The notes beneath the pieces are model-generated. The model had not been told where the DNA came from. It was given only the letters and a program-made list of their open reading frames with translations, and ran no database searches. From an uncultured Bacteriovoracaceae bacterium (lineage in GTDB: Bacteria; Desulfobacterota; Desulfomonilia; UBA1062): a stretch of 64,000 bases of DNA. A program made the translations under genes and the position numbers. The number at the start of each line of letters is the position of its first letter. Position 1 is the stretch's first letter. Below, one piece after another: positions 198 to 52,964 of this stretch. The stretch covers positions 2,234-66,233 of the forward strand of contig CAZUDI010000001.1 of NCBI GenBank assembly GCA_964618975.1, read 5' to 3'.

Positions 198-1324
198 AAG
201 ACATTTTCCGTAAGACCGCCAGTACCCTTGCCAATGAGGCCGTGGCGCGTTTCAAGTCCGAGGGCCGTCCGGTCATCGGCTATCCCTGCACCTATGTGCC
301 CGAGGAGATCATCCATGCCCTGGGTGGTCTGCCATTCAGGCTGCGCGGGGTGGGCATCTCGTCTCTGTCCATCGGGGACACCTATTTCGGCCCCGTCATC
401 TGCAGCTTTCCCAAATGCGTCCTGCAGCTGGCCGGGGAAGGTCAATACGCCTTCCTCGACGGGGTCATCATGTCCAATGGCTGCGACTCCATGCGCCGTC
501 TGGACGAGTGCTGGCGCAAGGCCGATGACGACATCCCGGGCACGTCCCCGGGCTTTTTCCACTACTTCGGGGTACCCCACAAGGACACCACCTACAGCCG
601 CGACTGGTTCGCCGAGGAGATCCGGGGGCTCATCGAGGCCCTCGAGGGGCACTTCGGGCTCACCCTCACCAAAGAAGCCCTGGGGGAATCCATCCGCCTC
701 TACAACGAGGGCCGCATGCTGCTCAGGCGCCTGGATGCCCTGCGAGCCCGGGAGAAGGCGCCGCTCTCGGGGGAGGAGGCCCTGAGTGTGATCATCGCGG
801 GCAGCTCTCTTCCGCGCGAGGAATACAACCGCCTGCTCACGGAGCTTCTCGTCGAGATGGAAGCTGCACCTGACGGCATCGACGGCCGCAAGCGGCTTCT
901 GCTCGTGGGCAGCATCAACGACGACCTCGATTTCGTGCGGGTGATCGAGGAGTGCGGGGCCCTGGTGGCGGCGGACACCCTGTGTTTCGGCGCACGCGCC
1001 TACCGCGATCTCGTGCCCGCAGACGGCGATCCGATCGAGGCCCTGGCCGGACGATACCTCTCACACGCCTATTGCCCGCGCATGTTCGGCCACTACCGCG
1101 AGCGTCTGGCGCTTCTTATGGACACGGTGCGCGAGTTCCGGATCGATGGAGTGATTCTGCAGAACATCCGCTTCTGCGACCTGCATGGCTCGGAAAACGG
1201 CATCTTCCAGCGGGACCTGGAGCGGGAGGGCATCCCCTGCCTGCGCATGGAGCGCGAATACGGTCCGCTGGTGGAATCCGGAAGGATCCGAATGCGCGTG
1301 GATGCCTTTCTGGAAAAGCTCTGA
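194..1324 (+). CDS. 2-hydroxyacyl-CoA dehydratase / benzoyl-CoA reductase family subunit, HgdB/BcrB-like (beta-type, 376 aa)
   Basis: Read from ORF 113..1324; the start is moved to MKDIFRK, which has an AGGGAGG SD. The YPCTYVPEEIIHALG motif and overall HgdB/BadE-family features are present. Confidence 0.8.
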   Translation: MKDIFRKTASTLANEAVARFKSEGRPVIGYPCTYVPEEIIHALGGLPFRLRGVGISSLSIGDTYFGPVICSFPKCVLQLAGEGQYAFLDGVIMSNGCDSMRRLDECWRKADDDIPGTSPGFFHYFGVPHKDTTYSRDWFAEEIRGLIEALEGHFGLTLTKEALGESIRLYNEGRMLLRRLDALRAREKAPLSGEEALSVIIAGSSLPREEYNRLLTELLVEMEAAPDGIDGRKRLLLVGSINDDLDFVRVIEECGALVAADTLCFGARAYRDLVPADGDPIEALAGRYLSHAYCPRMFGHYRERLALLMDTVREFRIDGVILQNIRFCDLHGSENGIFQRDLEREGIPCLRMEREYGPLVESGRIRMRVDAFLEKL

Positions 1325-1396
1325 TTCATGGGCATGAACCCCAGGGCAAACCCTGGATCCGCCTTGACGCCGCAAGCAGTGGTGAATGCTATGCCT
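1322..1396. repeat. MITE/REP-like dispersed repeat, copy A (TGATTCATGGGCATGAACCCCAGGGCAAACCC...)
   Basis: It shares the ATGGG..ATGAACCCCAGGGCAAGCC left arm with copies E, H and D. Its first TGA is the stop codon of the gene ending at 1324. Confidence 0.75.
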
Positions 1397-1429
1397 AGCG
1401 CTTCAAGGCAGAAATGACAAAGGGGGTAT

Positions 1430-1663
1430 GTGATGACCAACGAATCCATCGCCATCGAGGTCCTCACGGGCATGGCCCTGGACGACGCGCGGGTGCTCGC
1501 CGAGCGCCAGCGGGCTATCGACGCCCTGACGCTCTTCCACGAGGAGGCGCTCAAGGCCCTGCAGATGATCGAGAAGAAGGTGCACAACCAGGTGCTCAAG
1601 GAGCGTTCCCGCCTCTATCAGGACCGCATCCGGCAGGGGGCCAGCATCAGCATGACGCTGTAG
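1430..1663 (+). CDS. small hypothetical protein (77 aa) embedded between dehydratase subunit genes
   Basis: The ORF has an AAGGGGG SD upstream of its ATG and ends 11 nt before the next gene's SD. I recognise no family for it. Confidence 0.45.
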   Translation: MMTNESIAIEVLTGMALDDARVLAERQRAIDALTLFHEEALKALQMIEKKVHNQVLKERSRLYQDRIRQGASISMTL

Positions 1664-1674
1664 GGGAGAAACAC

Positions 1675-3150
1675 ATGAAAAAGGAAACTCGCGAATACGC
1701 CTATGACTGGAATCTCTGGACCATCATCGCCAATGCCTCCCGCAGCTACGACGGCTCGCCCAAGGAATATGCCGCCCTGCTCGAGTATGTCCCGCACTTC
1801 CGGGATTGCCTCGACGCCCTCATCCGGCACGGGCAACCGGGCATCCTGCTGCTCAAGCTGCTGGAAGGCTACCTGAGCGACTGCCTGCAGGCCCGCGACC
1901 GCGGGCAGAAGACCGCCTTCACCACCTTCTGTTTCGCGAGCCCCATCCTGTATGCCTTCGATGTGGTCCCCATCTGCACCGAGCCCATGTCGGTCCTGGG
2001 GACCTTCATCCACAAACGCGGCACGGCCGAATTCCTCGATTTCTGCTGCGAGGCGGGCTTCACCGAGACCTCCTGCTCCGCCCAGCGCGGCGCCCTGGGG
2101 GCCTACCTGGCGGGCCTCGGGGTGCGGCCGGACTTCGTGGTCTGCGATTCCCCCGGCATCTGCGATACCAACGCCAATTCCTTCGCCTTCGCCGCGGCCT
2201 GGCTCGATGTCCCCTTCTTCCAGCTCGATCACCCCCCGACCCTGACCGACGAACGCGCGCGCCGCTACTACCGACAGGATTTCCGCCGGCTGATCGCCTT
2301 CCTCGAGGAGCAGACCGGGAAAACCCTCGACCATGAGAGGCTTCGCGCCGTGATCGAGGAAATCCGGCGCCAGGACGAGCTGATCTGCGAGATTCAGGAA
2401 CTGCAGACGCTTCAACCCAATCCCGTGCCCGGGATCTACACCCTCTTTCTGTATGCCGGCAACTTTCTCCGGGGCGGCCGTCCCGAATATACCCGTCTGC
2501 TGGAGGCCATGCTCGCAGGCCTGCGCCCGGGTAGCGCCCCCCTCATCGCTTCTCCGCCGGAGCGGGCGCGGGGGATCTTTGCCTATATCGACCACTACAC
2601 CACGGACCTGCGTTTCTGGAACTGGCTGGAGACCCAGGGGGTCAGCCACCTGGGGTGCATCCTCAGTGCCTTCTGGCAGAAGGAAGCCTCCTACGCCTCC
2701 GACCGCCAGGAGGAAACCTATGATGCCATCGACTGCACGAGCCTCGATGGCATGCTGGACACCCTGGCCGACCAGATGTCGCGCATGCCCATGGTGAAAT
2801 CGATCCGAGGCCCCTACGACGCCCCCCATATGTGGCTCGAGGATACCCTGGGCATGGCGCGCCACTACCGGGCCGATTTCGTGGCCTACATCGGCACCAT
2901 GGGGTGCCGCAACACCTGGGGCATGGTCAAGCTTCTGGCGCGCGACCTCGAGCGGCAGGGCTACCCTACCCTGGTCCTCTACGGCGATGCCTTCGATGAC
3001 CGGGTGATGTCGTGGGAGTCCATCACGGACAAGCTGGAGGAATTCCTCAGCCTCAGGAACATCGGGCGACAGCCCCTCCCGGACGGCACAGCGTCTCCCT
3101 TACGAACCGGGGATCGACACCCCCTCTCCTCGCGGCCGGGAGGGGTTTAA
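1675..3150 (+). CDS. 2-hydroxyacyl-CoA dehydratase / BCR family subunit, HgdA/BcrC-like (alpha-type copy 1, 491 aa)
   Basis: This is an in-frame internal start (MKKETREY..) of ORF 1414..3150, with a GGGGAG SD. It shows strong HgdA-family features and is a paralog of the next gene. Confidence 0.8.
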   Translation: MKKETREYAYDWNLWTIIANASRSYDGSPKEYAALLEYVPHFRDCLDALIRHGQPGILLLKLLEGYLSDCLQARDRGQKTAFTTFCFASPILYAFDVVPICTEPMSVLGTFIHKRGTAEFLDFCCEAGFTETSCSAQRGALGAYLAGLGVRPDFVVCDSPGICDTNANSFAFAAAWLDVPFFQLDHPPTLTDERARRYYRQDFRRLIAFLEEQTGKTLDHERLRAVIEEIRRQDELICEIQELQTLQPNPVPGIYTLFLYAGNFLRGGRPEYTRLLEAMLAGLRPGSAPLIASPPERARGIFAYIDHYTTDLRFWNWLETQGVSHLGCILSAFWQKEASYASDRQEETYDAIDCTSLDGMLDTLADQMSRMPMVKSIRGPYDAPHMWLEDTLGMARHYRADFVAYIGTMGCRNTWGMVKLLARDLERQGYPTLVLYGDAFDDRVMSWESITDKLEEFLSLRNIGRQPLPDGTASPLRTGDRHPLSSRPGGV

Positions 3151-3240
3151 TCGCTATGGGACAAATTCCCCGTTGCTTGCAGCGGCAAGGAGGGGCAAAA
3201 GCTTGCCCCGGGGTTCACACCTATCTTTTCGCATGATCAG
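3147..3240. repeat. MITE/REP-like dispersed repeat, copy B (TTAATCGCTATGGGACAAATTCCCCG...GCTTGCCCCGGGGTTCACACC...CATGATCAGG)
   Basis: This is a full-length, inverted-orientation copy. Its initial TTAA provides the TAA stop of the alpha-1 dehydratase gene. Confidence 0.8.
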
Positions 3241-3258
3241 GGACGACAGGAGGTCAGG

Positions 3259-4662
3259 ATGAAGCGAGAGACACGTGAGTACCGTTTTGACTGGAATCTC
3301 TGGACGATCCTCGAGTGTGCCTCCAAGACCCAGGACGGATTCCGCAAGGAGTATGCGCACCTGCTCGACTATGTCCCGCACTATGCCGGGGTGCTGGAAG
3401 AATTCATGCGCCACGGTGAACCGGGACAGCGCTTTCTGAAGCTCCTGGCCGAATACATGGACATGTGCGTCCATGCCAAGCAGCGCGGCCAGACCACGGC
3501 TCTGACCACCTTCTGCCTCGCGCCGCCGATCCTGTACGCCTTCGATGTCGTGCCGCTGAGCCTGGAGGCATGGACGGTGCTCGGCACGATCGTGCTTGAA
3601 CGCGGCACGGCCGAGTTCTTGGACCACTGCTGCGAACTGGGCTTCACCGAGACCTCCTGCTCGGCCCAGCGCGGGGCGCTGGGCGCCTGGCTGGCCGGCT
3701 TGTGCACCGAGATGGATTTCATCGTCTTCGACTCCCCGGGCATCTGCGACACCAATGCCAATTCCTTTGCCTTCGCCTCGGCCTGGCTCGACAAACCCCT
3801 CTTTCAGCTCAACAGCCCCCCGACCCTCACAGACGATCGCGCGCTGCGCTATCACCGCGAGGACTTCAGGGCCCTGATCCATTTCCTCGAAGAGCAGACC
3901 GGGAGGGCCCTGAACGAGGGACGGCTCAGGGAGGTGCTCGAGGAGATCGCCCTCCAGGACGAGCTCGCCTGCGAACTCTTCGACCTGGCCGCCCTGAGGC
4001 CCTCCCCCGTGCCCCCGGTCTATGACCTGCTGCTCTACGGGGGCAAATTCATGATGGGGGGGCTGCCGACCTACACCCGCCTCCTGGAATCCATGGTGAG
4101 AACGGCCAGCGAGAACGCCCGCCGCGGGGCGGCCGGCACGACGACGGGCCGCGAAAGGGCGCGCGCCTTCTTCTGCTATATCGATCATTACACGACCGAT
4201 GCCCGCTTCTGGAACTGGTTTGACCGGCAGGAGATCAGCCTGCTGGGCTCCATGCTCTTCACCTTCTGGCAGAAGGACGCCGTCTACGCGAAGGGCAAGG
4301 AGGATCAGGGGTATAGCATCAGGACCGACAACCTGGAGGGCATGCTCGACTCCCTGACGGCCCAGATGTCCCGCATGCCCATGGTCAAGCAGATCCGGGG
4401 ACCCTACGACGCACCGGGCATGATGCTGGACGACGCCCTGGGGGCCGCCCGGGCGCTTAATGCCGATTTCGTCGTCTATTTCGGCACCATGGGGTGCCGC
4501 AACACCTGGGGCATGATCAAGCTCATCGCCCGCGACCTGGAACGCGAAGGCTACCCCACCCTGATCATGTACGCCGACGGCTTCGACGACCGGGTGATGT
4601 CCTGGGATTCGATAACGGACAAAATGACTGAATTTCTAAACTTAAGGAGGATAGTGGCATGA
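3259..4662 (+). CDS. 2-hydroxyacyl-CoA dehydratase / BCR family subunit, HgdA/BcrC-like (alpha-type copy 2, tandem paralog)
   Basis: The 467-aa protein starts MKRETREYRFDWNLW and has an AGGAGG SD. It is collinear with the preceding gene at roughly 55-60% identity. Confidence 0.85.
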   Translation: MKRETREYRFDWNLWTILECASKTQDGFRKEYAHLLDYVPHYAGVLEEFMRHGEPGQRFLKLLAEYMDMCVHAKQRGQTTALTTFCLAPPILYAFDVVPLSLEAWTVLGTIVLERGTAEFLDHCCELGFTETSCSAQRGALGAWLAGLCTEMDFIVFDSPGICDTNANSFAFASAWLDKPLFQLNSPPTLTDDRALRYHREDFRALIHFLEEQTGRALNEGRLREVLEEIALQDELACELFDLAALRPSPVPPVYDLLLYGGKFMMGGLPTYTRLLESMVRTASENARRGAAGTTTGRERARAFFCYIDHYTTDARFWNWFDRQEISLLGSMLFTFWQKDAVYAKGKEDQGYSIRTDNLEGMLDSLTAQMSRMPMVKQIRGPYDAPGMMLDDALGAARALNADFVVYFGTMGCRNTWGMIKLIARDLEREGYPTLIMYADGFDDRVMSWDSITDKMTEFLNLRRIVA

Positions 4663-5450
4663 TCACAGCCGGATGTGACGTCGGTTCCCTTACCGCCAAG
4701 GCGGTGGTCCTCAACCGCAGAACCATCCTCGGACAGGCCGTCATCAAGGCCTCCTCCCATCCCGAGGAGGCGGCCGACGAGGTGATGTCCCGGGCGCTGG
4801 CGCAGGCCGGGATCCCCCGCAGCGAGGTACGCTGCTGCGTGGGCACGGGCTACGGCCGCAACAAGATCCCCTTTCTGGACCACGCCGTCTCCGAGATCAC
4901 CTGCCACGGCAGGGGGGCCCAGTGGCTGCTGCCCAGCGCGCGCACGGTGATCGACATCGGCGGCCAGGACTGCAAGGCCCTCCGGCTCGACCGGGACGGC
5001 ACGGTGCTGAAATTCACCACCAACGACAAGTGCGCCGCCGGAACGGGGCGTTTCCTGGAGGTCATGGCACGCCTGCTGGGACTGAGCCTGGACGAACTGG
5101 GTACCATGGGTGGCACCCCCTCGGGTGAGCCCCTGTCACTCTCCTCCACCTGCACCGTGTGGGTGCAGGCCGAGGTCATCCGTCACCTCAACTGCCGCAG
5201 GCCCATCGACGAGATCAGCGACGCCATCAACCGGGCCATGGCCGGCCGCGTGGCCATCCTGGCCAACAGCGTGGGGGTGGACAAGGACGTCTGCATGACC
5301 GGCGGGGTGGCCAAGAACCAGGGTGTGGTCAGGCACCTGGAACGGCTCCTGGGGGTGAGGATCAAGCGCCTGCGGATCGACCCCCAGCTCACCGGCGCCC
5401 TGGGCGCGGCCCTCGTGGCCCGGCAGCACCTGGAAGGGGGTGCGGCATGA
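4659..5450 (+). CDS. CoA-substrate-specific enzyme activase (HgdC/BcrAD/BadFG ATPase family), copy 1
   Basis: The 263-aa ORF has GCDVGSLTAKAVV ... GTGYGR ... IDIGGQD ... TGGVAKN motifs typical of the acetate/sugar-kinase-fold [4Fe-4S] activases. Its ATG overlaps the upstream stop (ATGA). Confidence 0.85.
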   Translation: MITAGCDVGSLTAKAVVLNRRTILGQAVIKASSHPEEAADEVMSRALAQAGIPRSEVRCCVGTGYGRNKIPFLDHAVSEITCHGRGAQWLLPSARTVIDIGGQDCKALRLDRDGTVLKFTTNDKCAAGTGRFLEVMARLLGLSLDELGTMGGTPSGEPLSLSSTCTVWVQAEVIRHLNCRRPIDEISDAINRAMAGRVAILANSVGVDKDVCMTGGVAKNQGVVRHLERLLGVRIKRLRIDPQLTGALGAALVARQHLEGGAA

Positions 5451-6223
5451 TCGTGGCAGGAATCGACGTGGGCTCGCTCACCGCCAAGGCGGTGATCCTG
5501 GACGACAACCGCATCCTGGCCGCGCAGATCATCCGGGATCTGCCCGATCCGGTCGAGTCCGCCCGCCGCGTGATTGCGGCGGCCCTGGACCAGGCGGGCC
5601 TGGGCCTGGCTGATCTCGCCTGCTGTGTGGGCACGGGCTACGGCCGGGAACAGATCCCCTTCGCGCATTCCACCTGCTCCGAGATCGCCTGTCACGGCAA
5701 GGGGGCCCAGTGGCACGACCCCGATATCCGCATGGTGATCGACATCGGGGGCCAGGACGCCAAGGCCATCCGCCTCGATTCAGAGGGCAATATCGTGCGC
5801 TACGCCTACAACGACAAGTGCGCCTCGGGCACCGGGCGCTTTCTGGAGATCATGGCCGAGGCCCTGGGCGTGCCCCTGGACGAGATGGGGGCGCTGTCGC
5901 TGAGTGCGCGCGAGGTCCTTTCGATCTCGAATCAGTGTGTCATCTTCGCCGAGACGGAGATCGTCTCCCTGGTCAACGAGGGCGCCGCGCTCCCGGCGGT
6001 CGTCAAGGGCCTGCACCGGGCCCTGGCACATCGCGTGGCGGCCCTGGCCAAGGGCATCGAGCTGGAGACCGGCATCGCCTTTACCGGAGGCGTGGCCAAA
6101 AACCCGGGCATGTTCGCCGAATTGGAAAGCGCTTTAGGGATCGAACTTCGACACATCGATCCCGACCCGCAGATTACCGGCGCCCTGGGAGCGGCGCTCT
6201 TCGCCGCCCAGCAGGCGGCCTGA
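5447..6223 (+). CDS. CoA-substrate-specific enzyme activase (HgdC/BcrAD family), copy 2
   Basis: The in-frame start MIVAGIDVGSLTAKAVIL lies within ORF 5159..6223. It carries the same motif set as copy 1 and is ATGA-coupled to it. Confidence 0.85.
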   Translation: MIVAGIDVGSLTAKAVILDDNRILAAQIIRDLPDPVESARRVIAAALDQAGLGLADLACCVGTGYGREQIPFAHSTCSEIACHGKGAQWHDPDIRMVIDIGGQDAKAIRLDSEGNIVRYAYNDKCASGTGRFLEIMAEALGVPLDEMGALSLSAREVLSISNQCVIFAETEIVSLVNEGAALPAVVKGLHRALAHRVAALAKGIELETGIAFTGGVAKNPGMFAELESALGIELRHIDPDPQITGALGAALFAAQQAA

Positions 6224-10023: not shown

Positions 10024-10298
10024 GCTCGGCCTCCTGTAATCGCTGAGGGTCGTATTCCCCGCCGCTGCCGTCTTCAACCTCAATCCAGGGCCGGCCCCTA
10101 ATTTCATACCCCGGGCTTGCCCCAGCTCGCCTGTCAAAATTTAGCGTTCAGGGCATGGGCACGGGTTGTCCCGATAATCTGTCATGCCGGGAAAAATGTC
10201 AAGCCGGGCACTTCCCCAAGTCAGACGCCCGCAAAGATAAGACACAAGTCCCGATCGGCACCGTGCAGCGGATCCAGGCCTCAAGGCCGCAATGTCTC

Positions 10299-12256: not shown

Positions 12257-12345
12257 TTTAATGGCCTGCGGGTCGAACTCCCCGTCGCCTGCAGCGGTAT
12301 AGAGGGTCCTTGGGCTTGCCCTGGTGTTCTTGCCCATGAGGTTCT
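12257..12345. repeat. MITE/REP-like repeat, copy K (degenerate)
   Basis: GGGTCGAACTCCCCGTCGCCTGCAGCGG...GGGCTTGCCCTGGTGTTCTTGCCCATGAGG aligns to copies I and B. Confidence 0.55.
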
Positions 12346-15242: not shown

Positions 15243-15323
15243 TCAGCCGGCAGTCCGCATCCCCCTGAGAACGACCAGAAGCAGTGCTGCGCCAAGCTGA
15301 AGGTTGGGTACGTAATTATTCAT
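15243..15323 (-). CDS. putative leader peptide MNNYVPNLQLGAALLLVVLRGMRTAG (Leu/Val-rich) upstream of ilvB
   Basis: This 26-codon ORF is not in the track (under 60 aa). It is preceded by TTGACA-17-TATGGT and followed by the terminator hairpin. Confidence 0.25.
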   Translation of the reverse strand: MNNYVPNLQLGAALLLVVLRGMRTAG

Positions 15324-15330
15324 GCAATGC

Positions 15331-15359
15331 ACCATACGCAACGGTAGCGGATTTGTCAA
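15331..15359 (-). promoter_or_regulatory. sigma70-like promoter TTGACA-N17-TATGGT for putative ilv leader
   Basis: The -35 and -10 hexamers are spaced exactly 17 nt apart, 8 nt upstream of the leader ATG. Confidence 0.3.
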
Positions 15360-15372
15360 AGGTTTTGATTCT

Positions 15373-15527
15373 CAATCGCTTGCGGGGCAAATTCCCTTAG
15401 CACTTGCTGCGGCGGGGAGGGCCCGGCCTCTGTGTGGGTTCTTACCCATGATTCACCGGGGGTCGCCCCTGCTCCTTGCGATCTTAGGGGGTGCCAGGGC
15501 TTGCACCGGGGTTCATCCTCATGATTG
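15373..15527. repeat. MITE/REP-like repeat, copy C (composite, two tandem units)
   Basis: It reads AATCGCTTGCGGGGCAAATTCCC...CCCATGATTCA followed by GCCAGGGCTTGCACCGGGGTTCATCCTCATGATTGAAGG. Confidence 0.75.
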
Positions 15528-15552
15528 AAGGCCCTCTCGTTGAGCTTCCCCT

Positions 15553-17831: not shown

Positions 17832-18194
17832 GAATCTCTCCTTTCTCGCGTATTTTCATTTAGCATGGGAACGATCCCCCGCACCCGGCCCCGAAAACTC
17901 TTGAGACCTCAAGCGGCGGGGAAGGCATCCCTCTAAGCCTTTAGAGCAACCGGCATGCCATCATGGGCCATCAAGCCCCAGACTTGTCCATCAAATCGTT
18001 TTTCAAGAGGTTATTGTCTGAGATCCCTCACTGCCGCCCCTGGCCGTTACGGGCGCATGTACAGAATATATGCAGAGGTGCTGCCCAGGCTGTATGAATA
18101 ATAGCCAGGCGAGGTGCACCCGATGCCGGTTACAACCACGGATCCAAACATCCTCGGCGGGGGGGTGTCTGCCGCACAGGCTTAACGTCCTGCG

Positions 18195-18380
18195 GAATCA
18201 TCGACCCACAGGTCACGCTGCATGGGAATGAATCCCGGGGACAGCCCGCCCCCCTCCTGAAGGGCTTGATCGCTTGGAAACGTGGCATCAAACAAATCAT
18301 GGTATGAATCCCAAGGCAAGCCTAAGGCCCCGGCTTTTAGCTGCAAGTAGCGGGAAATTCTCCCCTCAGGTCATTAATGA
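18195..18380. repeat. MITE/REP-like repeat, copy D (composite, two units)
   Basis: It reads CATGGGAATGAATCCCGGGG... and AATCATGGTATGAATCCCAAGGCAAGCCTAAGGCCCCGGC...GCAAGTAGCGGGAAATTCTCCCC..CATTAATGATT. The second unit is about 85% identical to copy H. Confidence 0.8.
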
Positions 18381-22353: not shown

Positions 22354-22450
22354 TTAATCGTTATGGCTCGAATTCCCTCACAATGTGTACTGAATGCGCC
22401 GCCAAGGAAACACCGGGGTCTGTCCTTTAGCCTCATTCCCATACTAATGC
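22354..22450. repeat. MITE/REP-like repeat, copy J
   Basis: TTAATCGTTATGGCTCGAATTCCCTCAC... is similar to copy I unit 1 and to copies B and G. Confidence 0.6.
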
Positions 22451-29585: not shown

Positions 29586-29907
29586 ATCCGCTTCTATCCT
29601 ACTCGCTTGTCCCTGTCAACCGAAATCTCCTTCGACATACAGGGATTGTATCGGGGAGGCGGGCTCGGATGGACAGTTCCCGGCGGTGCCGTCAGGGCCT
29701 GATCGGTCTCCAGGACCGTTTCGTGGCATACAGCCAGCCGCTTGAAGGCAATCATTTTCCCTGCGGTTGGAAAACGGTTATCCCTTCAGCAGGTCTTCAC
29801 GACCATTCGTCCACATTTTACATGCTTTTTCAGCATATTGAAAACATTCTTTACGGGTATGCTTGTTGCATACTACCTCTTCGAGTATCTATCGAGCGGG
29901 AGGCCCC

Positions 29908-30303
29908 ATGGACAAACTGGTTGTACACTACCGCAAAGGCTACCTCACGAAAGGGCATGCCCTTGATTTCTCGGCCACCAAACCGAGCTTCCATTTCCTG
30001 CCCCTTAAGGGTGAACTCATCGAGGTCCACCTCAGCGAACTCAAGGCCGTCTTCTTCGTGCGGGACTTCAGAGGCGATCCATCCTGCCGGGAGTGCGCCG
30101 AATATCCGGCCGCCGCGCGAGCAGGCGAGGTGGCGGTCACCTTCAGCGATGGCGAGGTCATCCGGGGCGAGATCCCCGCTCCGCGTGCAAAAAAGCCCGG
30201 CTTCTTCCTCTTCCCCGCTGACCCTCGCAGCAACAACGTGGCCCTCTATGGGATCTATACCGCGGTACGTTCCATCGACCCCTTACGGCCCTCCCCGGTC
30301 TGA
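29908..30303 (+). CDS. hypothetical protein (131 aa), divergent from fur
   Basis: The start MDKLVVHYRKG has a GGGAGG SD. I recognise no family. Confidence 0.5.
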   Translation: MDKLVVHYRKGYLTKGHALDFSATKPSFHFLPLKGELIEVHLSELKAVFFVRDFRGDPSCRECAEYPAAARAGEVAVTFSDGEVIRGEIPAPRAKKPGFFLFPADPRSNNVALYGIYTAVRSIDPLRPSPV

Positions 30304-30389
30304 GACCACCGCATCCCCTGGGCCCCGAGCGTCACGGACAGGTAAGGGCACCGTTGCGTCCTGGTGCCCGCTCAGGGCAGCGAACAGCC

Positions 30390-30458
30390 TTAATCATGGG
30401 GATGAGAACCCCAGGGCAAGCCCTGTACCCTCCTTGACACCACCCGGGACGGGGCGTC
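30390..30458. repeat. MITE/REP-like repeat, copy E
   Basis: TTAATCATGGGGATGAGAACCCCAGGGCAAGCCCTG...CCTCCTTGACACCACCCGGGACGGGG is seen; the first 32 nt are the reverse complement of the end of copy I. Confidence 0.75.
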
Positions 30459-30487
30459 TATCCAGAGAGATTCAGCACAATCCGGAC

Positions 30488-31381
30488 TCAATGCGCATCG
30501 GGTGCAGAAGGCAACACCCGCACCCGGGACAGGGTACCGGCGTGCAGGACGACGAAGCTGCCCAGAGCCACACCGATCTCCCGGGATATCACCGGACACT
30601 TGGCTATGAGCAGGAAGAAGATGTCGCGGTCGGCCTGTGAGAGGGTCTCGAAATTGCCCTGCCCCTTCGAGATGACGAGATCCGCGCTGTGGTAGAGAGC
30701 GAGAAATTCCTCCGTACAGTGCTGTAGCGGCGTGCCTGGCGCGGGCGAGCCGCTGGAAATCACCCGACACAGGGTGTCCAGCCCGGCCTTATGGGCATCC
30801 GCAAGCGTGGCGTCATTGATCACCGGCTTGTCGCGTACGGCACAGATCACCTTCTCGGGCCCGATCACCTCGATAAAGATACGGTCGAGGACGATCTCGC
30901 CCGCATTGTCACAAAGGTACAGGACGCTGCGGGCCCGCTCGAGCCGCTCCCTTAAGGCATGGGTGTGATCGATGGACAGCTGCGCCTCAAGGGCCCTCCT
31001 GATCGTGGCCTCCACATCGAGACCGTCGCGCCCCCCGGCTCCGAAGTCGATGATGTTACCGGCCAGGGCGATGCGTAGGGCCGTATCAAAGGCATCCCCG
31101 GATTCCCGGGTGAGGGTCTTCAACTGCGGCAAGAACTGCACGGCCAGTTCGGTATAGTGGCGCTTGATCTCGGCATAGGGATCGAGGATCCCGCTGCGTT
31201 CACGGATCTGGGCATACATCTCCATGGCCATCAGCGGAGGGGCATGGCCGTAGTCGAAACGCGAGAGGTTCTCCAGCGTCTCCCGCACAAACCCCTCCTG
31301 TGCCTGGAGGGGAAGGTTCGATCTTGCGATATCCACGGCCTGTCGTACGAGACAGGCCACACATTCGAGACTGGTGTGCAC
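30488..31381 (-). CDS. DUF89 / ARMT1-like damage-control phosphatase family protein
   Basis: The 297-aa protein has an N-terminal CVACLVRQ motif and a pattern typical of DUF89 metal-dependent phosphatases. Confidence 0.65.
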   Translation of the reverse strand: MHTSLECVACLVRQAVDIARSNLPLQAQEGFVRETLENLSRFDYGHAPPLMAMEMYAQIRERSGILDPYAEIKRHYTELAVQFLPQLKTLTRESGDAFDTALRIALAGNIIDFGAGGRDGLDVEATIRRALEAQLSIDHTHALRERLERARSVLYLCDNAGEIVLDRIFIEVIGPEKVICAVRDKPVINDATLADAHKAGLDTLCRVISSGSPAPGTPLQHCTEEFLALYHSADLVISKGQGNFETLSQADRDIFFLLIAKCPVISREIGVALGSFVVLHAGTLSRVRVLPSAPDAH

Positions 31382-38157: not shown

Positions 38158-38289
38158 GCATGTTCCTCCTAGGCTGTTCTGGCCGTTTCCCTCATCATTG
38201 TCCTGTCTGTGCCCGGCCACCGCATACAGACTGTGACCACACACCTGCGCTTCCCCCATATCAACAAGCGCTCAATCACCCGGCCTTCT

Positions 38290-38372
38290 ATCGTGGCTAT
38301 GAAAACCCTCCGGCAAGCCCGGGCCACTCCTTGACGCCAGAAGCGGCGGGGAACCCGACCCATACCGATTAA
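38290..38372. repeat. MITE/REP-like repeat, copy F
   Basis: It reads ATCGTGGCTATGAAAACCCTCCGGCAAGCCCGGG..CCTTGACGCCAGAAGCGGCGGGGAACCCGACCCATACCGATTAA. Its terminal TTAA overlaps the frr stop codon. Confidence 0.7.
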
Positions 38373-38926
38373 ACTTCCAGAATCTCTTTTTCCTTTACGG
38401 ACAGGAGTTCATCCACCTTCTTGATACTCTCGTCCGTGACGGTCTGCACTTTGTCGAGCCCCTTCTGCATCTCATCCTTGTTGATCTCCTTGTCCTTCTC
38501 GAGATCCTTGAGCAGGGCATTGGCGTCCCGGCGATGGTTGCGCATCTCGATCTTATAGTCCTCCGCCATCTTCTTGACCATACGGACCAGTTCCTTGCGG
38601 CGTTCCTCGTTCAACGGGGGGATAGGCACCCGGATGATGTTCCCGTCATTATTGGGGGTCAGACCGAGCTCCGATTTCATAATGGCCTTTTCGATCGGCC
38701 CCAGGGCACCCTTATCCCAGGGCTGAATGGAAATCAGCCGAGCTTCGGGTACGGACAGGGTGGCCAGCTGGTTCAGCGGTGTCGGGCTGCCGTAGTAATC
38801 CACCAGGATCCCGTCCATAATGCCGATGGAGGCCCTGCCCGTGCGCACCTTGGCCAGGGCCTGCTTCATGGCCTCGAGGCTCTTGACCATGTCCTGCTTC
38901 ATTTCATTGAGTACATCATCAACCAT
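38369..38926 (-). CDS. frr: ribosome recycling factor
   Basis: The start MVDDVLNEMKQDM has a GGGAGGA SD, and the protein shows RRF-family conservation. Confidence 0.9.
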   Translation of the reverse strand: MVDDVLNEMKQDMVKSLEAMKQALAKVRTGRASIGIMDGILVDYYGSPTPLNQLATLSVPEARLISIQPWDKGALGPIEKAIMKSELGLTPNNDGNIIRVPIPPLNEERRKELVRMVKKMAEDYKIEMRNHRRDANALLKDLEKDKEINKDEMQKGLDKVQTVTDESIKKVDELLSVKEKEILEV

Positions 38927-38930
38927 AGGT

Positions 38931-39650
38931 TCATCCTCCCCCTGCCCATACACGGGATCCGATATCCTCGCCCATCAGGAGCCCCCGCAGCTTCTCCGGC
39001 ACATTGATGTTCATGACGCGGATTTCCAGGCCGTTATCACGGCACAACGCGATGGCTGAGGCATCCATCACCTTCAGGTTTCTGCTGAGCACCTCGTCAT
39101 AATCGAGTTCGGCAAAGAAGACGGCCTCCGGATACCGCACAGGGTCCCTGTCGTAGACACCGTCGACCTTGGTGGCCTTGATCAGGACGTCGGCCCCGAT
39201 CTCCAGCGCGCGCAGCGCGGCCGTAGTGTCGGTGGTGAAATACGGGCACCCCGTGCCCCCGGCAAAGAGTACCACCCGGTTGTGATCGAGGTGTTTGAGT
39301 GCCCGGGCCCGAACAAAGGTCTCGACCACCCGGGGAACCTCCAAGGCACTCATGATGCGGCTCTCCAGGCCCTGGCGGCCCATCTCTTCCGACAGCGCCA
39401 AGGCGTTCATGAGCGTCGCCAACATGCCCATGTGATCCGAACGCACACGGTCCGTGAAGATCCCGGTCTGGGCGCCGCGGTGAATGTTGCCACCGCCGAT
39501 GACGATGCCCACCTGCGCCCCGGTCTCCACGGCTACCCGCACACATGCGGTGATGCGGGCCAGGGCCTCGGGCTCGATCCCGAAGCCCTGCGCGCCGGCC
39601 AGGGCCTCACCGCTGAGTTTCAAGAGAATGCGGGAATACCGGATCGTCAC
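38931..39650 (-). CDS. pyrH: UMP kinase
   Basis: It has a YSRILLKLSGEAL motif and a GGGNIHRG motif. A GTG start is proposed (VTIRYSRILLK aligns to the E. coli PyrH N-terminus); the 5' end is uncertain (the ORF is open to 39710). Confidence 0.8.
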   Translation of the reverse strand: MTIRYSRILLKLSGEALAGAQGFGIEPEALARITACVRVAVETGAQVGIVIGGGNIHRGAQTGIFTDRVRSDHMGMLATLMNALALSEEMGRQGLESRIMSALEVPRVVETFVRARALKHLDHNRVVLFAGGTGCPYFTTDTTAALRALEIGADVLIKATKVDGVYDRDPVRYPEAVFFAELDYDEVLSRNLKVMDASAIALCRDNGLEIRVMNINVPEKLRGLLMGEDIGSRVWAGGG

Positions 39651-41150: not shown

Positions 41151-41338
41151 ACTTCCTCCTTCTCTGGGTTTTTATCCTCCGCCCCCTGCAGGCATCATCC
41201 TCCCATAGGACACCCGAAGCCTGCGTAAAAAAAGGGACGTGTGTATTGGTCAGCCCTTCTATCACACCCGGAACCGGCTTTCAAGGGGTAAGGCATGAAA
41301 TTTATCAGGGGAACAGTGCCATGTATGCCCGGGGACGC

Positions 41339-41902
41339 TCATGCCCCTTTGAACAGCGGTGCGACCTTCTTGAAGAGAGGCGTCCCCGCCCGCTCCAGGA
41401 GCATGAAGGCAATGGTCTCGGTGGTATACACGAGGGCTCCCGCATCCCGCAGGGTCTCGATGGCCGCTGTGCGGTCCTCGGCGTAACGCGAACAGACCGC
41501 ATCTGCGGCCACCACCACCTTGAAACCGGCCCGCAGGAGGTCGAGGGCGCTCTGCAGCACACACACATGCGTTTCGATCCCGGTAATTATCACGGACCTG
41601 CGGCCCGTCTCCACCAGTACCTGCTTCAGGTCCGGGTCTCTGAAGCAGCTGAAGGTCATCTTGGCATAGCGGGGGATGCCCTCGGTCAGGCGCCCGACCT
41701 CCAGCATGGTCTCTCCGAGGCCTTGCGGGTACTGCTCAGAGATCACAAGCGGCAGAGAGCACGCCTTGGCGCACTCGATCAGGATCAGACTGTTGTCGAG
41801 GAACGCCTGCCTGAATGGCACCTCCATGGCCTGATAGAGCCGCGGCTGAATATCGATCACCAGCAGGAGCGTCTCATTACTATAAATCATAAAATCCTTC
41901 AT
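41339..41902 (-). CDS. isochorismatase-family cysteine hydrolase
   Basis: The start MKDFMIYSN has a GAGGAAG SD, and the protein has a VVAADAVCS catalytic-Cys region. Confidence 0.7.
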   Translation of the reverse strand: MKDFMIYSNETLLLVIDIQPRLYQAMEVPFRQAFLDNSLILIECAKACSLPLVISEQYPQGLGETMLEVGRLTEGIPRYAKMTFSCFRDPDLKQVLVETGRRSVIITGIETHVCVLQSALDLLRAGFKVVVAADAVCSRYAEDRTAAIETLRDAGALVYTTETIAFMLLERAGTPLFKKVAPLFKGA

Positions 41903-41927
41903 CGTCTTCCTCATTCATTAATCGCTA

Positions 41928-41990
41928 TGGGGCGAATTCCCCCACCGTTTGCGTCGTCAAGGGCTTGCGCCGAGGTTCATGCCCCTGATG
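41928..41990. repeat. MITE/REP-like repeat, copy G (short)
   Basis: TTAATCGCTATGGGGCGAATTCCCCC...GGGCTTGCGCCGAGGTTCATGCCCCTGATG aligns to copy B. Confidence 0.7.
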
Positions 41991-42039
41991 TCAGATCCAT
42001 CGCTATCGCTCTGGCCGTCCCTTTGATGTGCGGTGCCGC

Positions 42040-42717
42040 TCAGAGGATCAGAGGATAGATCATGGCATACACGATGGCGGGGATCATATTGCCGACCTTG
42101 ATCTGCTTGAGCCCCAGCAGGTTAACACCGATCCCCACGATGATGATACCGCCGGTGGCCTCCACCGAACTCAGGACTAAGGGGTCCTGGAGGAAGGCCA
42201 GGGCGGATGCCAGCAGGGTGAACCCGCCCTGAACCACCAGCACGGACAGCGCCGAGAAGGCCACACCGATGCCCAGGGAGGAGGCCAGCGCCGTGGCAGC
42301 CACCCCGTCGAGCAGGGATTTCACGAAAAGCGTGCTGGAATCACCCACGGTTCCGTCCTGGATACAGCCCACGATCATCATGGCCCCCGTAAGGTAGAGC
42401 ACGGAGGCCGCTACAAACCCCTGCACAAAGGTCGACGACTCGGAGCGGAAGCGCCGTTTTAGTCGCTCGCCCAGAAGCTCGACCCCACGTTCGATGCGTA
42501 AAAGCTCACCGGTCACTGAGCCCAGCAGCAAACAGCTGATGGTGGCCACGGGGGTGTTCCCGACGAGCGCCATCTTGATCCCGATGAGTATCACGGCCAA
42601 TCCCAGGGCCTCCATGAGGATGGACTTGATCCCCGGAGAGATATGTCGTCCGGCGAACAGGCCCACCGCACTCCCCACCAGAATCGCCCCGGTATTCACG
42701 ATTGTTCCGGTCACGCC
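42040..42717 (-). CDS. DUF554-family membrane protein (YqgA-like)
   Basis: A GTG start (VTGTIVNTGAILVG) with an AAGGAG SD is proposed, but the ORF is open upstream to 42744, where an ATG lies inside a repeat element. Confidence 0.6.
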   Translation of the reverse strand, partial: GVTGTIVNTGAILVGSAVGLFAGRHISPGIKSILMEALGLAVILIGIKMALVGNTPVATISCLLLGSVTGELLRIERGVELLGERLKRRFRSESSTFVQGFVAASVLYLTGAMMIVGCIQDGTVGDSSTLFVKSLLDGVAATALASSLGIGVAFSALSVLVVQGGFTLLASALAFLQDPLVLSSVEATGGIIIVGIGVNLLGLKQIKVGNMIPAIVYAMIYPLIL

Positions 42718-42733: not shown

Positions 42734-42824
42734 CGTTCAATCATGGGTATGGACCCCAGGGCAAGCCTAAGGCCCCTGCTTGCCGCCGCAAGCGGCGGGG
42801 AATTTGACCCTCAGGCCATTAAAG
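42734..42824. repeat. MITE/REP-like repeat, copy H (full-length, near-consensus)
   Basis: It reads AATCATGGGTATGGACCCCAGGGCAAGCCTAAGGCCCCTGCTTGCCGCCGCAAGCGGCGGGGAATTTGACCCTCAGGCCATTAAAG, with a central GCTTGC-CGCC-GCAAGC hairpin. Confidence 0.85.
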
Positions 42825-43316: not shown

Positions 43317-44252
43317 ATGCCGACACACCACCATCACCACCACAACGGCCAGCATCCCTCCCCGAGGGGTTCCCTCGGGCTCGTGATCCTCTTCAATGTC
43401 ATGATCACCGTGGTGGAGTATATCGGCGGCTTCCTCTCCGGCAGCCTGGCGCTTGTCTCGGATGCCACCCACAACCTCTCGGATGTCTTGGCGCTGATTC
43501 TCGGCTTCGTCGGGGAGCGGCTCATGCGGCGTGAGCCGGACCTGGATTTCTCCTTCGGCCTGCGGAGGATCGAGGTGGCCACGGCCCTTATCAACGCCCT
43601 GACCCTGGTCGCCATCGCCGCCTTCATCCTCATCGAGGCCCTCGATCGCTATCAGAATCCGCACCCGATCGCCATCGAGGTCATGCTGCCGGTGGCACTC
43701 GTGGGTCTTTTGGGCAACGTCTTCTCAATCGTGGCACTCAGGGGACAGCGCGACAGAAACCTGAACCTCAGGGCCGCCTTCCTCCATCTCTTCTACGATG
43801 CCCTTTCGTCAGGAGCCGTGATCGCCGTGGCCTTGATCCTCCTCTTCTGGCCCGCCTTCTGGCTCGATCCCCTCATAAGCCTCGTAATCGTCGTCATGAT
43901 CGCGTCCAGCGCGGTGGGCATTATCCGGGAGTCTCTGCGCATCTTCCTGCAGGTGGCGCCCGCCCATCTCGACACCGCCGCCATCCAGCGTTCCCTGGAG
44001 TCCGCCTCCGGCGGCGGCGTTCACGGGCTGCACATCTGGTCGGTGAATTCCACCGAGGTCTTTCTGTCCTGCCATATCTGCCTGGGAGAGGAGGCGGTCG
44101 TGAATACGGACCAGGTACTGCGCTCGGTGAATGCCGAGCTCGAGCGCCGCTACGGCATCACCCATACGGCCATTCAGGTGGAGCGCTCCGCGCACTGCCG
44201 TGATGGAGGGGGCCCCTGCTGCTCTCAGGAGAACCCTTCCGGGAGGTCTTGA
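43317..44252 (+). CDS. cation diffusion facilitator (CDF) family divalent-metal efflux transporter (CzcD/ZitB-like) with N-terminal His-rich tract
   Basis: The start MPTHHHHHHNGQHP has a GAGGAG SD, and the protein has 6 TM segments and HxxxD motifs (ATHNLSDV). The C-terminal domain ends HCRDGGGPCCSQ. Confidence 0.8.
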   Translation: MPTHHHHHHNGQHPSPRGSLGLVILFNVMITVVEYIGGFLSGSLALVSDATHNLSDVLALILGFVGERLMRREPDLDFSFGLRRIEVATALINALTLVAIAAFILIEALDRYQNPHPIAIEVMLPVALVGLLGNVFSIVALRGQRDRNLNLRAAFLHLFYDALSSGAVIAVALILLFWPAFWLDPLISLVIVVMIASSAVGIIRESLRIFLQVAPAHLDTAAIQRSLESASGGGVHGLHIWSVNSTEVFLSCHICLGEEAVVNTDQVLRSVNAELERRYGITHTAIQVERSAHCRDGGGPCCSQENPSGRS

Positions 44253-50175: not shown

Positions 50176-50181
50176 TAGGTC

Positions 50182-50972: not shown

Positions 50973-51388
50973 GCCTGATCCTTCAGTTTCAATCACGATG
51001 ATTTAGAATTCCCCATCGCTGGCAGCGCCAAGGGGGGCCCAGGGTTTTTCATACCTGTTATGACGAGGTCCCCTTTCGTACAACCAGTCATTCCGAGGAC
51101 TGAAGATCCCCCCCGAAAAGCAGGTCCCTTCAGCTCAGATAAGGGTCCCTTTTCATACATCTTGGTCCCCGACAGGTCAAGCCCTCATTCGGCGCCCCCG
51201 ACGGGAACGACGCAGCCCCCCCACATGCCACACCGCCAGCAAAGAGCTGCCGGTTCGATACGCGCCCCCCCATGAAACTATGGTTGTCCTTGCCGGGGCA
51301 GACGTCTTTCTGATCTATCAAGATTGGTCTTTCATTATAAATCATATGATAGTCTTGGGTTGCGTAGGCGTCTTTTCAATGGTGCATT

Positions 51389-51470: not shown

Positions 51471-51526
51471 GATATGATTCCTATACCACCCTGTTATAAA
51501 AACCACATACAGTAAGGAGAGCGGTT

Positions 51527-51700
51527 ATGGCATATGTTATCAATGACGAATGCATCTGCTGTGGGACCTGCATCGACGAGTGTCCCGTGAGTGCTATCAG
51601 TGAGGGAGACGAGAAATACAGCATCGATCCGGACACCTGCACCGATTGCGGGGCCTGTGCCGATGTGTGCCCCACGGACGCAATCGAACCCGGCGACTGA
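51527..51700 (+). CDS. 2x[4Fe-4S] ferredoxin (57 aa), not in ORF track (<60 aa)
   Basis: The gene (MAYVINDECICCGTCIDECPVSAISEGDEKYSIDPDTCTDCGACADVCPTDAIEPGD) has two CxxCxxCxxxCP motifs and an AAGGAG SD. Confidence 0.8.
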   Translation: MAYVINDECICCGTCIDECPVSAISEGDEKYSIDPDTCTDCGACADVCPTDAIEPGD

Positions 51701-51722
51701 TTGCCCCAGGTTAGACCAATCA

Positions 51723-51751
51723 CGGCATCACCGCCAAAGGTGGTGATGCCG
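51723..51751 (+). terminator. hairpin CGGCATCACC-gccaaa-GGTGGTGATGCCG downstream of ferredoxin (no T-tract; weak terminator or structured element)
   Basis: An inverted repeat is seen, with no U-run following. Confidence 0.25.
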
Positions 51752-51853
51752 GACACCCTGTTCCCCCCGATATCCTGAACCGTGAGTGCTTCTTTAAATC
51801 AAAGATTGTGCGGAACCGGGGTACGGGGTCGTTCTATGAGCCTGCATGCTTAC

Positions 51854-51892
51854 AAAAAAACACGCCCCTGGCCGGGAAACTTCCCGGCCAGG
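51854..51892 (-). terminator. rho-independent terminator for HU/IHF gene (CCTGGCCGGGAA-gtt-TCCCGGCCAGG + U7 on minus strand)
   Basis: A hairpin plus an AAAAAAA run (U-run on the minus strand) sits 55 nt downstream of the stop. Confidence 0.7.
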
Positions 51893-51945
51893 ATGTGTTT
51901 GCCTGGTCTTGATACCTTGTCTGACAGTGGGCTGGGTGAGGTGCG

Positions 51946-52233
51946 CTAGCCGTTACTGAGCTTGGACCTCAGGACATTCGACAAGGAAAAGGTCACCACC
52001 CGGCGCGGGGTGATGGTGATCTCCTCGCCGCTCTGGGGATTGCGCCCCCGACGGGCGGCTTTGTCCCTCACCTTCCACTTGCCGAAGCCGGAAATGCTCA
52101 CCGGATCACCCTTCTCCAGGGTCGCCTTGATGATCTCAATGAAAAGCTCGACGGAATCGCTGGCCTCTTTGCGGGACAAACCGGAGTTCAGCACTATCTC
52201 GTCAATGATACCACTCTTTGTCAGCGTGCCCAT
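51946..52233 (-). CDS. HU/IHF-family DNA-binding protein
   Basis: The 95-aa protein begins MGTLTKSGIIDEIV and has a GFGKWKVRDKAARRGRNPQSGEEITI beta-arm. Confidence 0.85.
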   Translation of the reverse strand: MGTLTKSGIIDEIVLNSGLSRKEASDSVELFIEIIKATLEKGDPVSISGFGKWKVRDKAARRGRNPQSGEEITITPRRVVTFSLSNVLRSKLSNG

Positions 52234-52288
52234 ACATTCCTCCTTACTTATAACTACATAGAATTATTAATTCCGCATCCTGCGTATG

Positions 52289-52636
52289 TCAATAGCCGAA
52301 TGGTTTTAAAGTGTTTTTTGCCAGGTGGGTGAATCCCAGATCACGGGCCATGATGGCCCGCAGGCCTGCAATCGAGAGGATGCGCACATCATGATTGACG
52401 CCGCAGGTGAAGGAAAAAACGTGCATTTTACCAAAAATATCTTCATATTCTATCGGTTCTATCTTCACCTTCCATCCCTGCTTGCGTGCGAAGGGCAGCA
52501 CCTTTTTCAGGTCCTCCCAGGCAAAGCATTCGGCCCAGTAATCTTCCCGCTGGATCCCGGTTGGACGTGAATGATCCTTGATGAGCTCATAGCGTCCCGA
52601 CAGGGGAATGGATAGATAGATGTTGTATTTATGCAT
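52289..52636 (-). CDS. hypothetical protein (115 aa) in AT-rich island
   Basis: The local GC is roughly 50% against roughly 65% in flanking DNA. I recognise no family. Confidence 0.45.
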   Translation of the reverse strand: MHKYNIYLSIPLSGRYELIKDHSRPTGIQREDYWAECFAWEDLKKVLPFARKQGWKVKIEPIEYEDIFGKMHVFSFTCGVNHDVRILSIAGLRAIMARDLGFTHLAKNTLKPFGY

Positions 52637-52724
52637 GGTCCTCTCTTATGCACTCTATCGTCAACGACCGCACACAACTTGAGAGACTCCGCTCCATCAT
52701 CCCGGAATACATAACCTTTATTCT

Positions 52725-52964
52725 CTATGGCTCGAATTCTATGCCGTTTCAGGACTTGCCGCGGGTTTTCATGCCCCAGCTTCGCTCTGGGCCACATTTA
52801 CCGCCATTTGTGGTAAAGGGGAGGTCAAGACCTGCCCCGGGATTAAGACATGATTCCCCCGCCCGTCCCGCCTTTCCTTTTAGTGGACAGAGGGTCAAAT
52901 TCCCCGCCGCTTACGGTGGCCAGGAGGGTCAGAAGCTTGCCCTGGGGTTCATCCCCCTGATTAA
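52725..52964. repeat. MITE/REP-like repeat, copy I (cluster of 2-3 units)
   Basis: It reads TCTATGGCTCGAATTC...GGACTTGCCGCGGGTTTTCATGCCCCAGC, then CCCCGGGATTAAGACATGATTCCCCCG, then GTCAAATTCCCCGCCGC...GAAGCTTGCCCTGGGGTTCATCCCCCTGATTAA. Confidence 0.8.

Follow-up and report, generated by a model that had tools for sequence, protein, structure and literature searches.

Palindrome-associated transposable elements (PATEs) of the IS200/IS605 family were described in Haloquadratum walsbyi (PMC3119063), and PATE-like elements have been noted in Halanaerobium (PMC7290912) and Geobacillus stearothermophilus (PMC10055086). They are defined by the lack of terminal inverted repeats (TIRs), palindromes near the termini, the lack of target duplication and a length too short for a transposase gene (PMC3119063; PMC7290912, PMC10055086). 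In the insertion sequence (IS) IS608, TTAC remains outside the IS (PMC3201880). Here, a 64,000-nucleotide stretch of DNA from an uncultured Bacteriovoracaceae bacterium (contig CAZUDI010000001.1, positions 2,234 to 66,233; hereafter, the window) was analyzed for a dispersed family of small intergenic repeats, named the mini element, which had been noticed by a model from the letters alone (hereafter, the sequence-only reading). The repeats proved genuine and represent eroded copies of a small non-coding mobile element. The mini element is very probably a non-autonomous derivative of IS200 that resembles PATEs and combines the two hairpin ends of an IS200-type IS; its mobilization was presumably in trans, by the transposase TnpA via single-strand "peel and paste" transposition. 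PATE-like elements are a known kind, and the present family is a compact, cross-phylum addition to it.

The mini element largely fits the published PATE definition. Like PATEs, it offers no room for protein coding, lacks target duplication, carries hairpins near both termini and has IS200/IS605-derived ends, with mobilization in trans by TnpA presumed for both. It differs from PATEs in being far more compact (about 80–85 nt in its basic form vs about 270 nt in the Halanaerobium example), in deriving from a tnpA-only IS200 clade, in being recognizably the same sequence across several bacterial phyla, and in having its ATACC guide-like motif 3′ rather than 5′ of the right-end hairpin.

Both ends of the mini element are related to those of IS200-type elements

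As judged by comparison with plasmid and metagenome sequences, the mini element shows homology at both ends to the termini of tnpA-bearing IS elements. In a BLASTN search of PLSDB with a canonical copy (L042), plasmid matches were confined to the 5′ half (nt 1–47) at 85–88% identity. This short variant gave the decisive matches, and no match was obtained with the 114-nt Bacteroidales variant. On the plasmid pPSE7367.01 of Pseudanabaena sp. PCC 7367, the left-end match is separated by 10 nt from an annotated IS200/IS605 tnpA downstream, and on pDSJ05 of Pantoea stewartii a methylase gene and then tnpA come after it. The two IS elements have the left end TTTAATCACTATAGGGTCTAATTCC-CCGCCGCTTGCGGCG in common, and their right ends show the layout of the mini element's 3′ half, AATACC-CCGCTGCTTGCGGCGGGG-TTTTTTATTGAG, with AATACC, a hairpin with a CTTG-type loop and then GGGGTT..ATTGAG.

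These IS200-group elements (tnpA only) resemble the mini element in the left end (TTTAAT, then C...GGGTCTAATTCC-hairpin), with 85–88% identity to its 5′ half, and in a right-end hairpin with a CTTG-type loop, GGGGTT and a T-rich terminal hexamer. The mini element differs in lacking tnpA and in its right-end hairpin (CCAGGGCTTGCCCTGG), which is nearest to that of another subclade, found only in the metagenome contigs L177, L132, L183 and L125. As a separate observation, the Pantoea element (L094 3001–4665) is apparently an IS200-type element with a passenger DNA adenine methylase gene between the left end and tnpA; covariance-model matches to the left end (3013–3067) and the right end (4610–4665) bracket the methylase gene and tnpA.

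Metagenome contigs were scanned for the right-hand hairpin motif at 55–85 nt from Tyr/Gln codons of the kind found at the C-terminus of TnpA. IS200-type TnpA, with 40–64% amino acid identity to the Pseudanabaena protein, was found at 36 of 120 metagenome loci. Three representative TnpA proteins (Pseudanabaena, L107 and L177) matched Pfam Y1_Tnp (E 1e-34 to 1e-39) and the IS200 equivalog model NF033573 of NCBIfam (126–137 bits, cutoff 55), and scored only 22–30 bits with the REP-associated model NF047646 (cutoff 80). At the IS200-type metagenomic loci, a GCTTGCCCYGGGG hairpin lies 10–40 nt downstream of tnpA, and a second one is often found upstream. In L177 and L132, CATACC-CCAGGGCTTGCCCTGG-GGTTCTTGATT is the mini element's right-end hairpin and tail except for 6 nt.

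The relationship was also recovered with models built from the mini elements. The covariance model R1, built from 27 copies from other organisms with no window sequence in training, matched both the left and right ends flanking tnpA. With a profile from the window copies alone, left ends were detected in L095, L094, L096 and L093 (E 2e-7 to 1.5e-4), as were the right ends of L183 and L177. At L103 (3990–4075), the terminus of a right end (...TTCATT) is joined with no spacer to another left end (CGAGAGAATTCC); because this junction lacks TTTAAT, TTTAAT is taken as the flanking target and not as part of the element. The search for an autonomous partner IS, proposed in the sequence-only reading, was the decisive test and yielded these IS200-type elements with homologous ends.

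In the autonomous relatives, the guide-like motif and the terminal hexamer vary together: ATTCC occurs with ..AAT, ATACC with ..ATT and ATGCC with ..ACT. The third base of AT-N-CC covaries with the penultimate base of the hexamer (T with A, A with T, G with C) across L107, L115, L141, L177, L179, L180, L183, L188 and L204. This looks like what pairing between a guide and a cleavage site would predict, and the left end of the mini element obeys the rule. As in IS608 and ISDra2 (PMC3201880, PMC5027513), a conserved motif, the putative target, is placed outside the left end, about 12–19 nt 5′ of the left hairpin foot, the terminal motif is placed inside the right end, about 11–17 nt 3′ of the right hairpin foot, and the short motifs immediately 5′ of the hairpins contain a variable base that covaries with the terminal motif. 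Unlike in those systems, hexamer-like motifs (TTTAAT, TTGATT) take the place of TTAC/TCAA or TTGAT in the mini-element clade, and IS608 itself shows no similarity in sequence to the mini element.

Two hairpins on the same strand are maintained by compensatory changes

Read along the top strand, the flanking TTTAAT is followed by C, a variable linker, the guide-like motif GG(G)T-nAAATTCC and the left-end hairpin CCGNNN-CTTG-NNNCGG. These are followed by AAnnnGGGT, the right-end hairpin CCAGGG-CTTG-CCCTGG, GGTTCATACC-A and a terminal TTGATT or TTTATT, the terminal hexamer in the window copies being ATGATT. The linker is either short, or has an extra UUCG hairpin, or has a long CCCCTCCCC/GGGGAGGGG hairpin. 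Both hairpins lie on one strand and both have CTTG loops. What had been described as an overall imperfect palindrome consists instead of two adjacent same-strand hairpins and short complementary ends.

Both hairpins are maintained by compensatory changes. In a curated alignment, each hairpin was 95.7% paired. In the left-end hairpin, 3 positions had undergone double changes and one position took 6 different pair types; the right-end hairpin showed an A-U to G-C exchange. The observed covariation score was reached by none of 500 shuffles, and sliding the 3′ partners by at least one column reduced the pairing from 89% to 32–60%. RNAalifold, suggested in the sequence-only reading, gave only a 5-bp CCCC/GGGG helix on a mixed alignment in which the variable hairpin was misaligned; this alignment was set aside for the curated one, which gave the two supported hairpins. 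The central GCTTGC-N4-GCAAGC hairpin proposed earlier does occur in the window subfamily, where it competes with CCGNNN-CTTG-NNNCGG, and it is the latter that is backed by cross-phylum covariation. G-U exceeded A-C on the top strand (12 vs 6), which hints weakly that the top strand is the folding strand.

TTTAAT was exact at the 5′ edge in 63 of 84 copies and a TTNAYT hexamer closes the element, the positions of the edge motifs in this count being partly imposed by the search patterns. Base composition was at background beyond both edges, which are sharp. No target-site duplication and no repeated flank were found in 63–72 insertions. Complementarity between the flanks, as from insertion into palindromes or terminators, was not above the control (mean −9.3 vs −8.5 kcal/mol), with a few outliers. 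One of these, which reflects no general rule, is at L028 (6830–6980), where a copy lies within the loop of a 14-bp inverted repeat (GTGCGCCTCCGTGG ... CCACAGAGGCGCAC).

The mini element occurs in at least five phyla

One genome per species was scanned with the pattern AATTCCCC-N20-45-GCTTGCCCYGGGGT, which gave at least 89 stretches. The full element was present in 85 of them and two were chance matches; the pattern matches in Novosphingobium (L021) and Verrucomicrobiales (L005) were rejected on this ground. Among the matches listed, the carriers were mostly metagenome-assembled genomes (MAGs) of Bacteroidota, together with Desulfobacteraceae, Syntrophales and other "delta" MAGs, one alphaproteobacterial and one gammaproteobacterial MAG, Omnitrophota and Neomarinimicrobiota (Marinimicrobia). 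The family had been thought lineage-specific, which it is not, given its presence in at least five phyla. On Piscirickettsia plasmids, a left and a right end of this family also occur without tnpA, giving a mini element in an isolate. No match was found in viral contigs. A literature search with the exact element sequence found no paper, and a literature match for "PATEs" was dismissed as it was the word Patescibacteria.

At least 26 copies with 97% identity were found at unrelated sites in one Bacteroidales MAG (JAIVHO01; L038 2740–2865 and 25 other loci). They represent a recent burst, which is taken as indirect evidence of mobility. The burst consists of a 115-nt variant in which a further hairpin, with a UUCG loop, is inserted after TTTAATC and before the left-end guide, and in other Bacteroidota the variant with the long hairpin has it at the same insertion site.

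For the window itself, RadA had one 100% identical protein on record and next relatives with at most 67% identity; by this protein, the organism groups with Desulfomonilia-like members of Desulfobacterota. Three other assemblies of the same species were 99.8–100% identical to the window. No presence/absence polymorphism of copies was found in two same-species assemblies spanning copies (43–64 kb of the window, 99.9% identity). A short break in colinearity was observed between window 43410–43449 and L090 19360–19447 in otherwise 99.9% identical same-species DNA.

The window holds about 16 old and decaying copies

The core motif GGCTTGCCCTGGGGTTCAT (up to 3 mismatches) occurred 9 times in the window vs 0.03 expected from dinucleotide shuffles. 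Repeat finding linked the loci of the sequence-only reading to each other in both orientations. The covariance model R1 detected 10 copies (E 8.5e-21 to 0.008, all E<0.01), split 5:5 between the strands, at 42740–42810(−), 3158–3227(+), 52892–52961(+), 12270–12340(+), 1325–1396(−), 18295–18365(−), 30393–30464(−), 41930–41989(+), 38290–38361(−) and 15435–15525(+). A nhmmer profile from 8 window copies gave 15 window matches at E<0.001 and added about 5 degenerate copies beyond the R1 set. All copies are collected in Table 1.

Ten of the 11 loci listed in the sequence-only reading were confirmed as members of a dispersed repeat family, with the start of the copy given at 41928 moved to 41918; the remaining one (22354–22450) is a decayed remnant only. 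The list was incomplete, and the window-derived profile added the copies at 10037–10112(+), 17863–17935(−) and 51004–51059(+). With about 16 copies per 64 kb, the density is roughly one per 4 kb, higher than the one per about 6 kb estimated before. The tandem or composite nature of several loci was borne out: 15373–15527 is made of two head-to-tail copies, 18195–18380 of one copy and a fragment, and 52725–52964 of one good copy and one or two degenerate copies. Head-to-tail junctions without spacer are present at 15454/15455 and 18296/18297.

Table 1. Mini-element copies and remnants in the window (positions within the 64,000-nt stretch; CM, covariance model)
Feature	Position	Strand	Support	Context
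Mini-element copy	1323..1398	−	CM R1 41.5 bits, E 5.5e-13; nhmmer E 9e-19	5′ part diverged; 3′ end overlaps TGA stop of 2-hydroxyglutaryl-CoA dehydratase D-component (HGD-D) gene 113–1324
Mini-element copy	3147..3229	+	CM R1 51.5 bits, E 5.6e-17	TTTAAT 3146–3151 includes stop of gene 1414–3150
Degenerate copy	10037..10112	+	nhmmer E 1.3e-5; repeat-finder matches D16, I7	Left-end portion recognizable, right-end hairpin decayed
Mini-element copy, TTAATG-GCCTG subfamily	12258..12341	+	CM R1 42.7 bits, E 1.8e-13	
Diverged copy, first of head-to-tail pair	15374..15454	+	nhmmer E 6.6e-6	Terminus ...CCCATGATT
Second copy of pair	15455..15528	+	nhmmer E 1.4e-6 (15467–15528); CM R1 E 0.0076	Begins right after ATGATT terminus of copy 15374..15454
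Degenerate copy	17863..17935	−	nhmmer E 6.6e-4; repeat-finder match D10	
Right-end-like fragment	18221..18259	−	nhmmer E 0.029 (weak evidence)	Abuts copy 18297–18377
Mini-element copy	18297..18377	−	CM R1 40.1 bits, E 2e-12	
Strongly decayed remnant	22354..22450	+	Repeat-finder D16: 80% identity over 25 nt; undetected by nhmmer profile or CM R1	Only left-end-like first 25 nt clearly related (80% identical to 3147 copy)
5′-truncated copy	30390..30459	−	CM R1 30.7 bits, E 1.2e-8	Between convergent genes 29863–30303 and 30488–31381, which have Pfam matches
Mini-element copy	38287..38372	−	CM R1 E 0.0033; nhmmer E 9e-17	TTTAAT overlaps stop codon of frr (38369–38953; Pfam RRF)
Mini-element copy, middle shortened	41918..41991	+	CM R1 E 0.0012; nhmmer E 1.3e-14	Just upstream of isochorismatase gene start at 41914
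Best-preserved window copy	42737..42822	−	CM R1 61 bits, E 8.5e-21	
Short degenerate copy	51004..51059	+	nhmmer E 2.2e-7	
Degenerate copy	52785..52846	+	nhmmer E 6.3e-5	Composite region downstream of radA
Mini-element copy	52880..52963	+	CM R1 50.2 bits, E 1.7e-16	Directly downstream of radA (52992–54350, −)

The copies are about 70–95 nt long in the window and about 85–140 nt in other organisms. Mean pairwise identity among the window copies was 58%, and broken right-end stems occur among them. These copies are old, decay freely and have probably lost their mobility. The G+C content is 58–66% along the window and 61% in the genome, and the GC skew of the window is uniformly negative.

The copies are intergenic, as the sequence-only reading had stated: the long open reading frames (ORFs) that overlap them (29669–30640 and 41246–42058) lack a Pfam match, in contrast to the flanking genes. 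TTTAAT at two edges holds the TAA of the upstream gene (3148–3150; frr 38369–38371), which explains the earlier remark that most copies are at gene 3′ ends. The 68-amino-acid ORF 15322..15528, suspected to be spurious, exists and sits wholly on repeat DNA. The only ORFs across mini-element copies are spurious and there is no coding capacity. The earlier view of a non-coding, mobile-element-derived repeat family hidden from ORF annotation was right in outline.

Beside the copies, the region 113–6223 was found to be a paralogous gene cluster with three HGD-D genes, whose spacers are occupied by the copies 1323–1398 and 3147–3229. The paralogous genes 1414–3150 and 3259–4662 have 71–77% DNA identity, and two further paralogous genes, at about 4659–5450 and 5444–6223, are 73–81% identical.

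Proposed transposition and target choice

By analogy with IS608 and ISDra2 (PMC3201880, PMC5027513), a Y1 HUH TnpA encoded elsewhere would bind both top-strand hairpins in single-stranded DNA. TnpA cleavage would take place 3′ of TTTAAT on the left side and, on the right side, 3′ of the terminal hexamer, and the element would be excised as a single-stranded circle, which would be reinserted 3′ of another TTTAAT. On both strands of the 64-kb window, TTTAAT occurs 6 times, 4 of them at element edges, and TTAAT 18 times, 7 of them at element edges. TTTAAT is nearly restricted to stop codons (TAA) and spacers in this 61% G+C genome, which would explain the intergenic placement of the copies at gene 3′ ends. 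The head-to-tail pairs would be explained by the resemblance of the element's own terminus to the target, and the L103 junction and the head-to-tail junctions in the window suggest that this terminus serves as an insertion target.

The three-way layout is nearly unchanged from Bacteroidota to Desulfobacterota, with the extra hairpins modular and at one fixed site. There is a slim chance that this conserved layout (second GGGT, 3′-displaced ATACC, modular hairpins) means a distinct recognition by TnpA of ends folded into one composite substrate, or a secondary RNA use of the fold as in the Salmonella IS200 5′ tnpA RNA, and that the element is more than a passive end-to-end deletion product.

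Evaluation of the IS200 origin and of alternative explanations

Several observations count against a PATE-like origin. The mini element has GGGT 5′ and ATACC 3′ of its right-end hairpin, whereas ATACC is 5′ in the autonomous relatives, and none of the 36 autonomous IS elements has the exact right end of the mini element (GGGT-hairpin-GGTTCATACCATTGATT). No tnpA was found in the window or in the 89 copy-bearing genomic blocks, and trans-mobilization is for this reason only inferred. No empty site was present among the same-species assemblies compared. Lagging-strand targeting would predict an orientation bias, and the one observed is weak: the top strand was on the G-rich strand of the 8-kb block in 49 of 78 copies (p=0.03), and the orientation was split 14/27 in the burst MAG and evenly in the window. 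The neighborhood of the copies was also searched for proteins. Clustering of 580 ORFs from the 89 loci gave no linked family of shared neighboring proteins, and a regex screen for HUH/Tyr proteins found none.

The copies could instead be elements of the repetitive extragenic palindrome (REP) type, including REP doublets forming hairpins (REPINs), kept by a REP-associated tyrosine transposase (RAYT, TnpA_REP) that is domesticated and present in single copy, and not derived from a true IS. High-copy, intergenic, hairpin-forming copies with no nearby transposase and without strong orientation bias would suit such elements, and RAYTs are related to IS200 TnpA (PMC3333891, PMC6006769). REP-type elements and the mini element are alike high-copy intergenic hairpins with ties to IS200. 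However, the mini element has distinct left and right ends arranged asymmetrically rather than a 20–40-nt palindrome or an inverted REP doublet, as in REPs, bacterial interspersed mosaic elements (BIMEs) and REPINs, and it shows no association with a RAYT. Both of its ends have homologs in the ends of IS elements that bear tnpA and occupy many different sites, and the linked transposases pass NF033573 and fail NF047646. The REP/BIME type favored earlier is therefore improbable, the adjoining transposases scoring as IS200 equivalogs and not as REP-associated proteins. Even less probable is the classical miniature inverted-repeat transposable element (MITE) implied by the sequence-only reading, with short TIRs (TTAATC/GATTAA), a DDE transposase and a TA or TTAA target duplication. 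Its support is the 4–6-nt end complementarity TTAATC...GATTAA in the window copies and some others, but this is missing from many subfamilies, such as that of the Bacteroidales MAG with the ends TTTAATCC...CCATTTATT. The presumed termini are better read as the flanking target TTTAAT and the terminal hexamer of the element, and under the IS608 model the 5′ partner of the complementarity would be the target and lie outside the element. The flanks carry no duplication, no DDE transposase is linked, and the ends match those of IS200, which have neither TIRs nor duplications (PMC7290912, PMC3119063); the partner found belongs to the IS200 group and has hairpins at its ends and a transposase of the Y1 (HUH) type.

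Conservation across phyla could also be driven by function if the copies were structured small RNAs or cis-acting RNA elements such as terminators, mRNA stabilizers or a ribozyme. Two hairpins under compensatory change stand beside highly conserved unpaired stretches, modules that form hairpins and differ in length are inserted at a single fixed site, G-U is more frequent than A-C on the top strand, and the 5′ end of Salmonella IS200 gives a structured regulatory RNA (PMC5435999, PMC12594629). Against this, Rfam gave no match for the window at the gathering threshold or for six loci at E up to 1, and only noise at E up to 10. The four orientations relative to neighboring genes were nearly equal (21, 19, 17 and 14), and the upstream flanks are unconserved, which argues against a shared promoter. 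Strand-specific hairpins are equally expected under single-strand DNA transposition, and the window copies decay freely. The structured small-RNA family raised in the sequence-only reading is accordingly quite improbable, though not as far-fetched as the classical MITE. Hammerhead, twister, tRNA-like and small-ORF readings were dropped on sequence inspection, which revealed no core motifs and no conserved reading frame.

Significance

Derivation from an IS200-type element reveals no new kind of system and would not surprise a specialist. The copies are missed by gene callers, spawn spurious ORFs and occupy stop codons and the spacers of operons. Gene models of the present Desulfomonilia-like MAG, and of the many Bacteroidota MAGs with copies, benefit when the copies are masked. 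The natural series of variants, with sequence-free left-end stems, inserted hairpins and hexamers covarying with the guide-like motifs, could define what TnpA of this IS200 clade needs. The family also shows that as little as about 80 nt is enough for an IS200 substrate to spread and to persist in different phyla.

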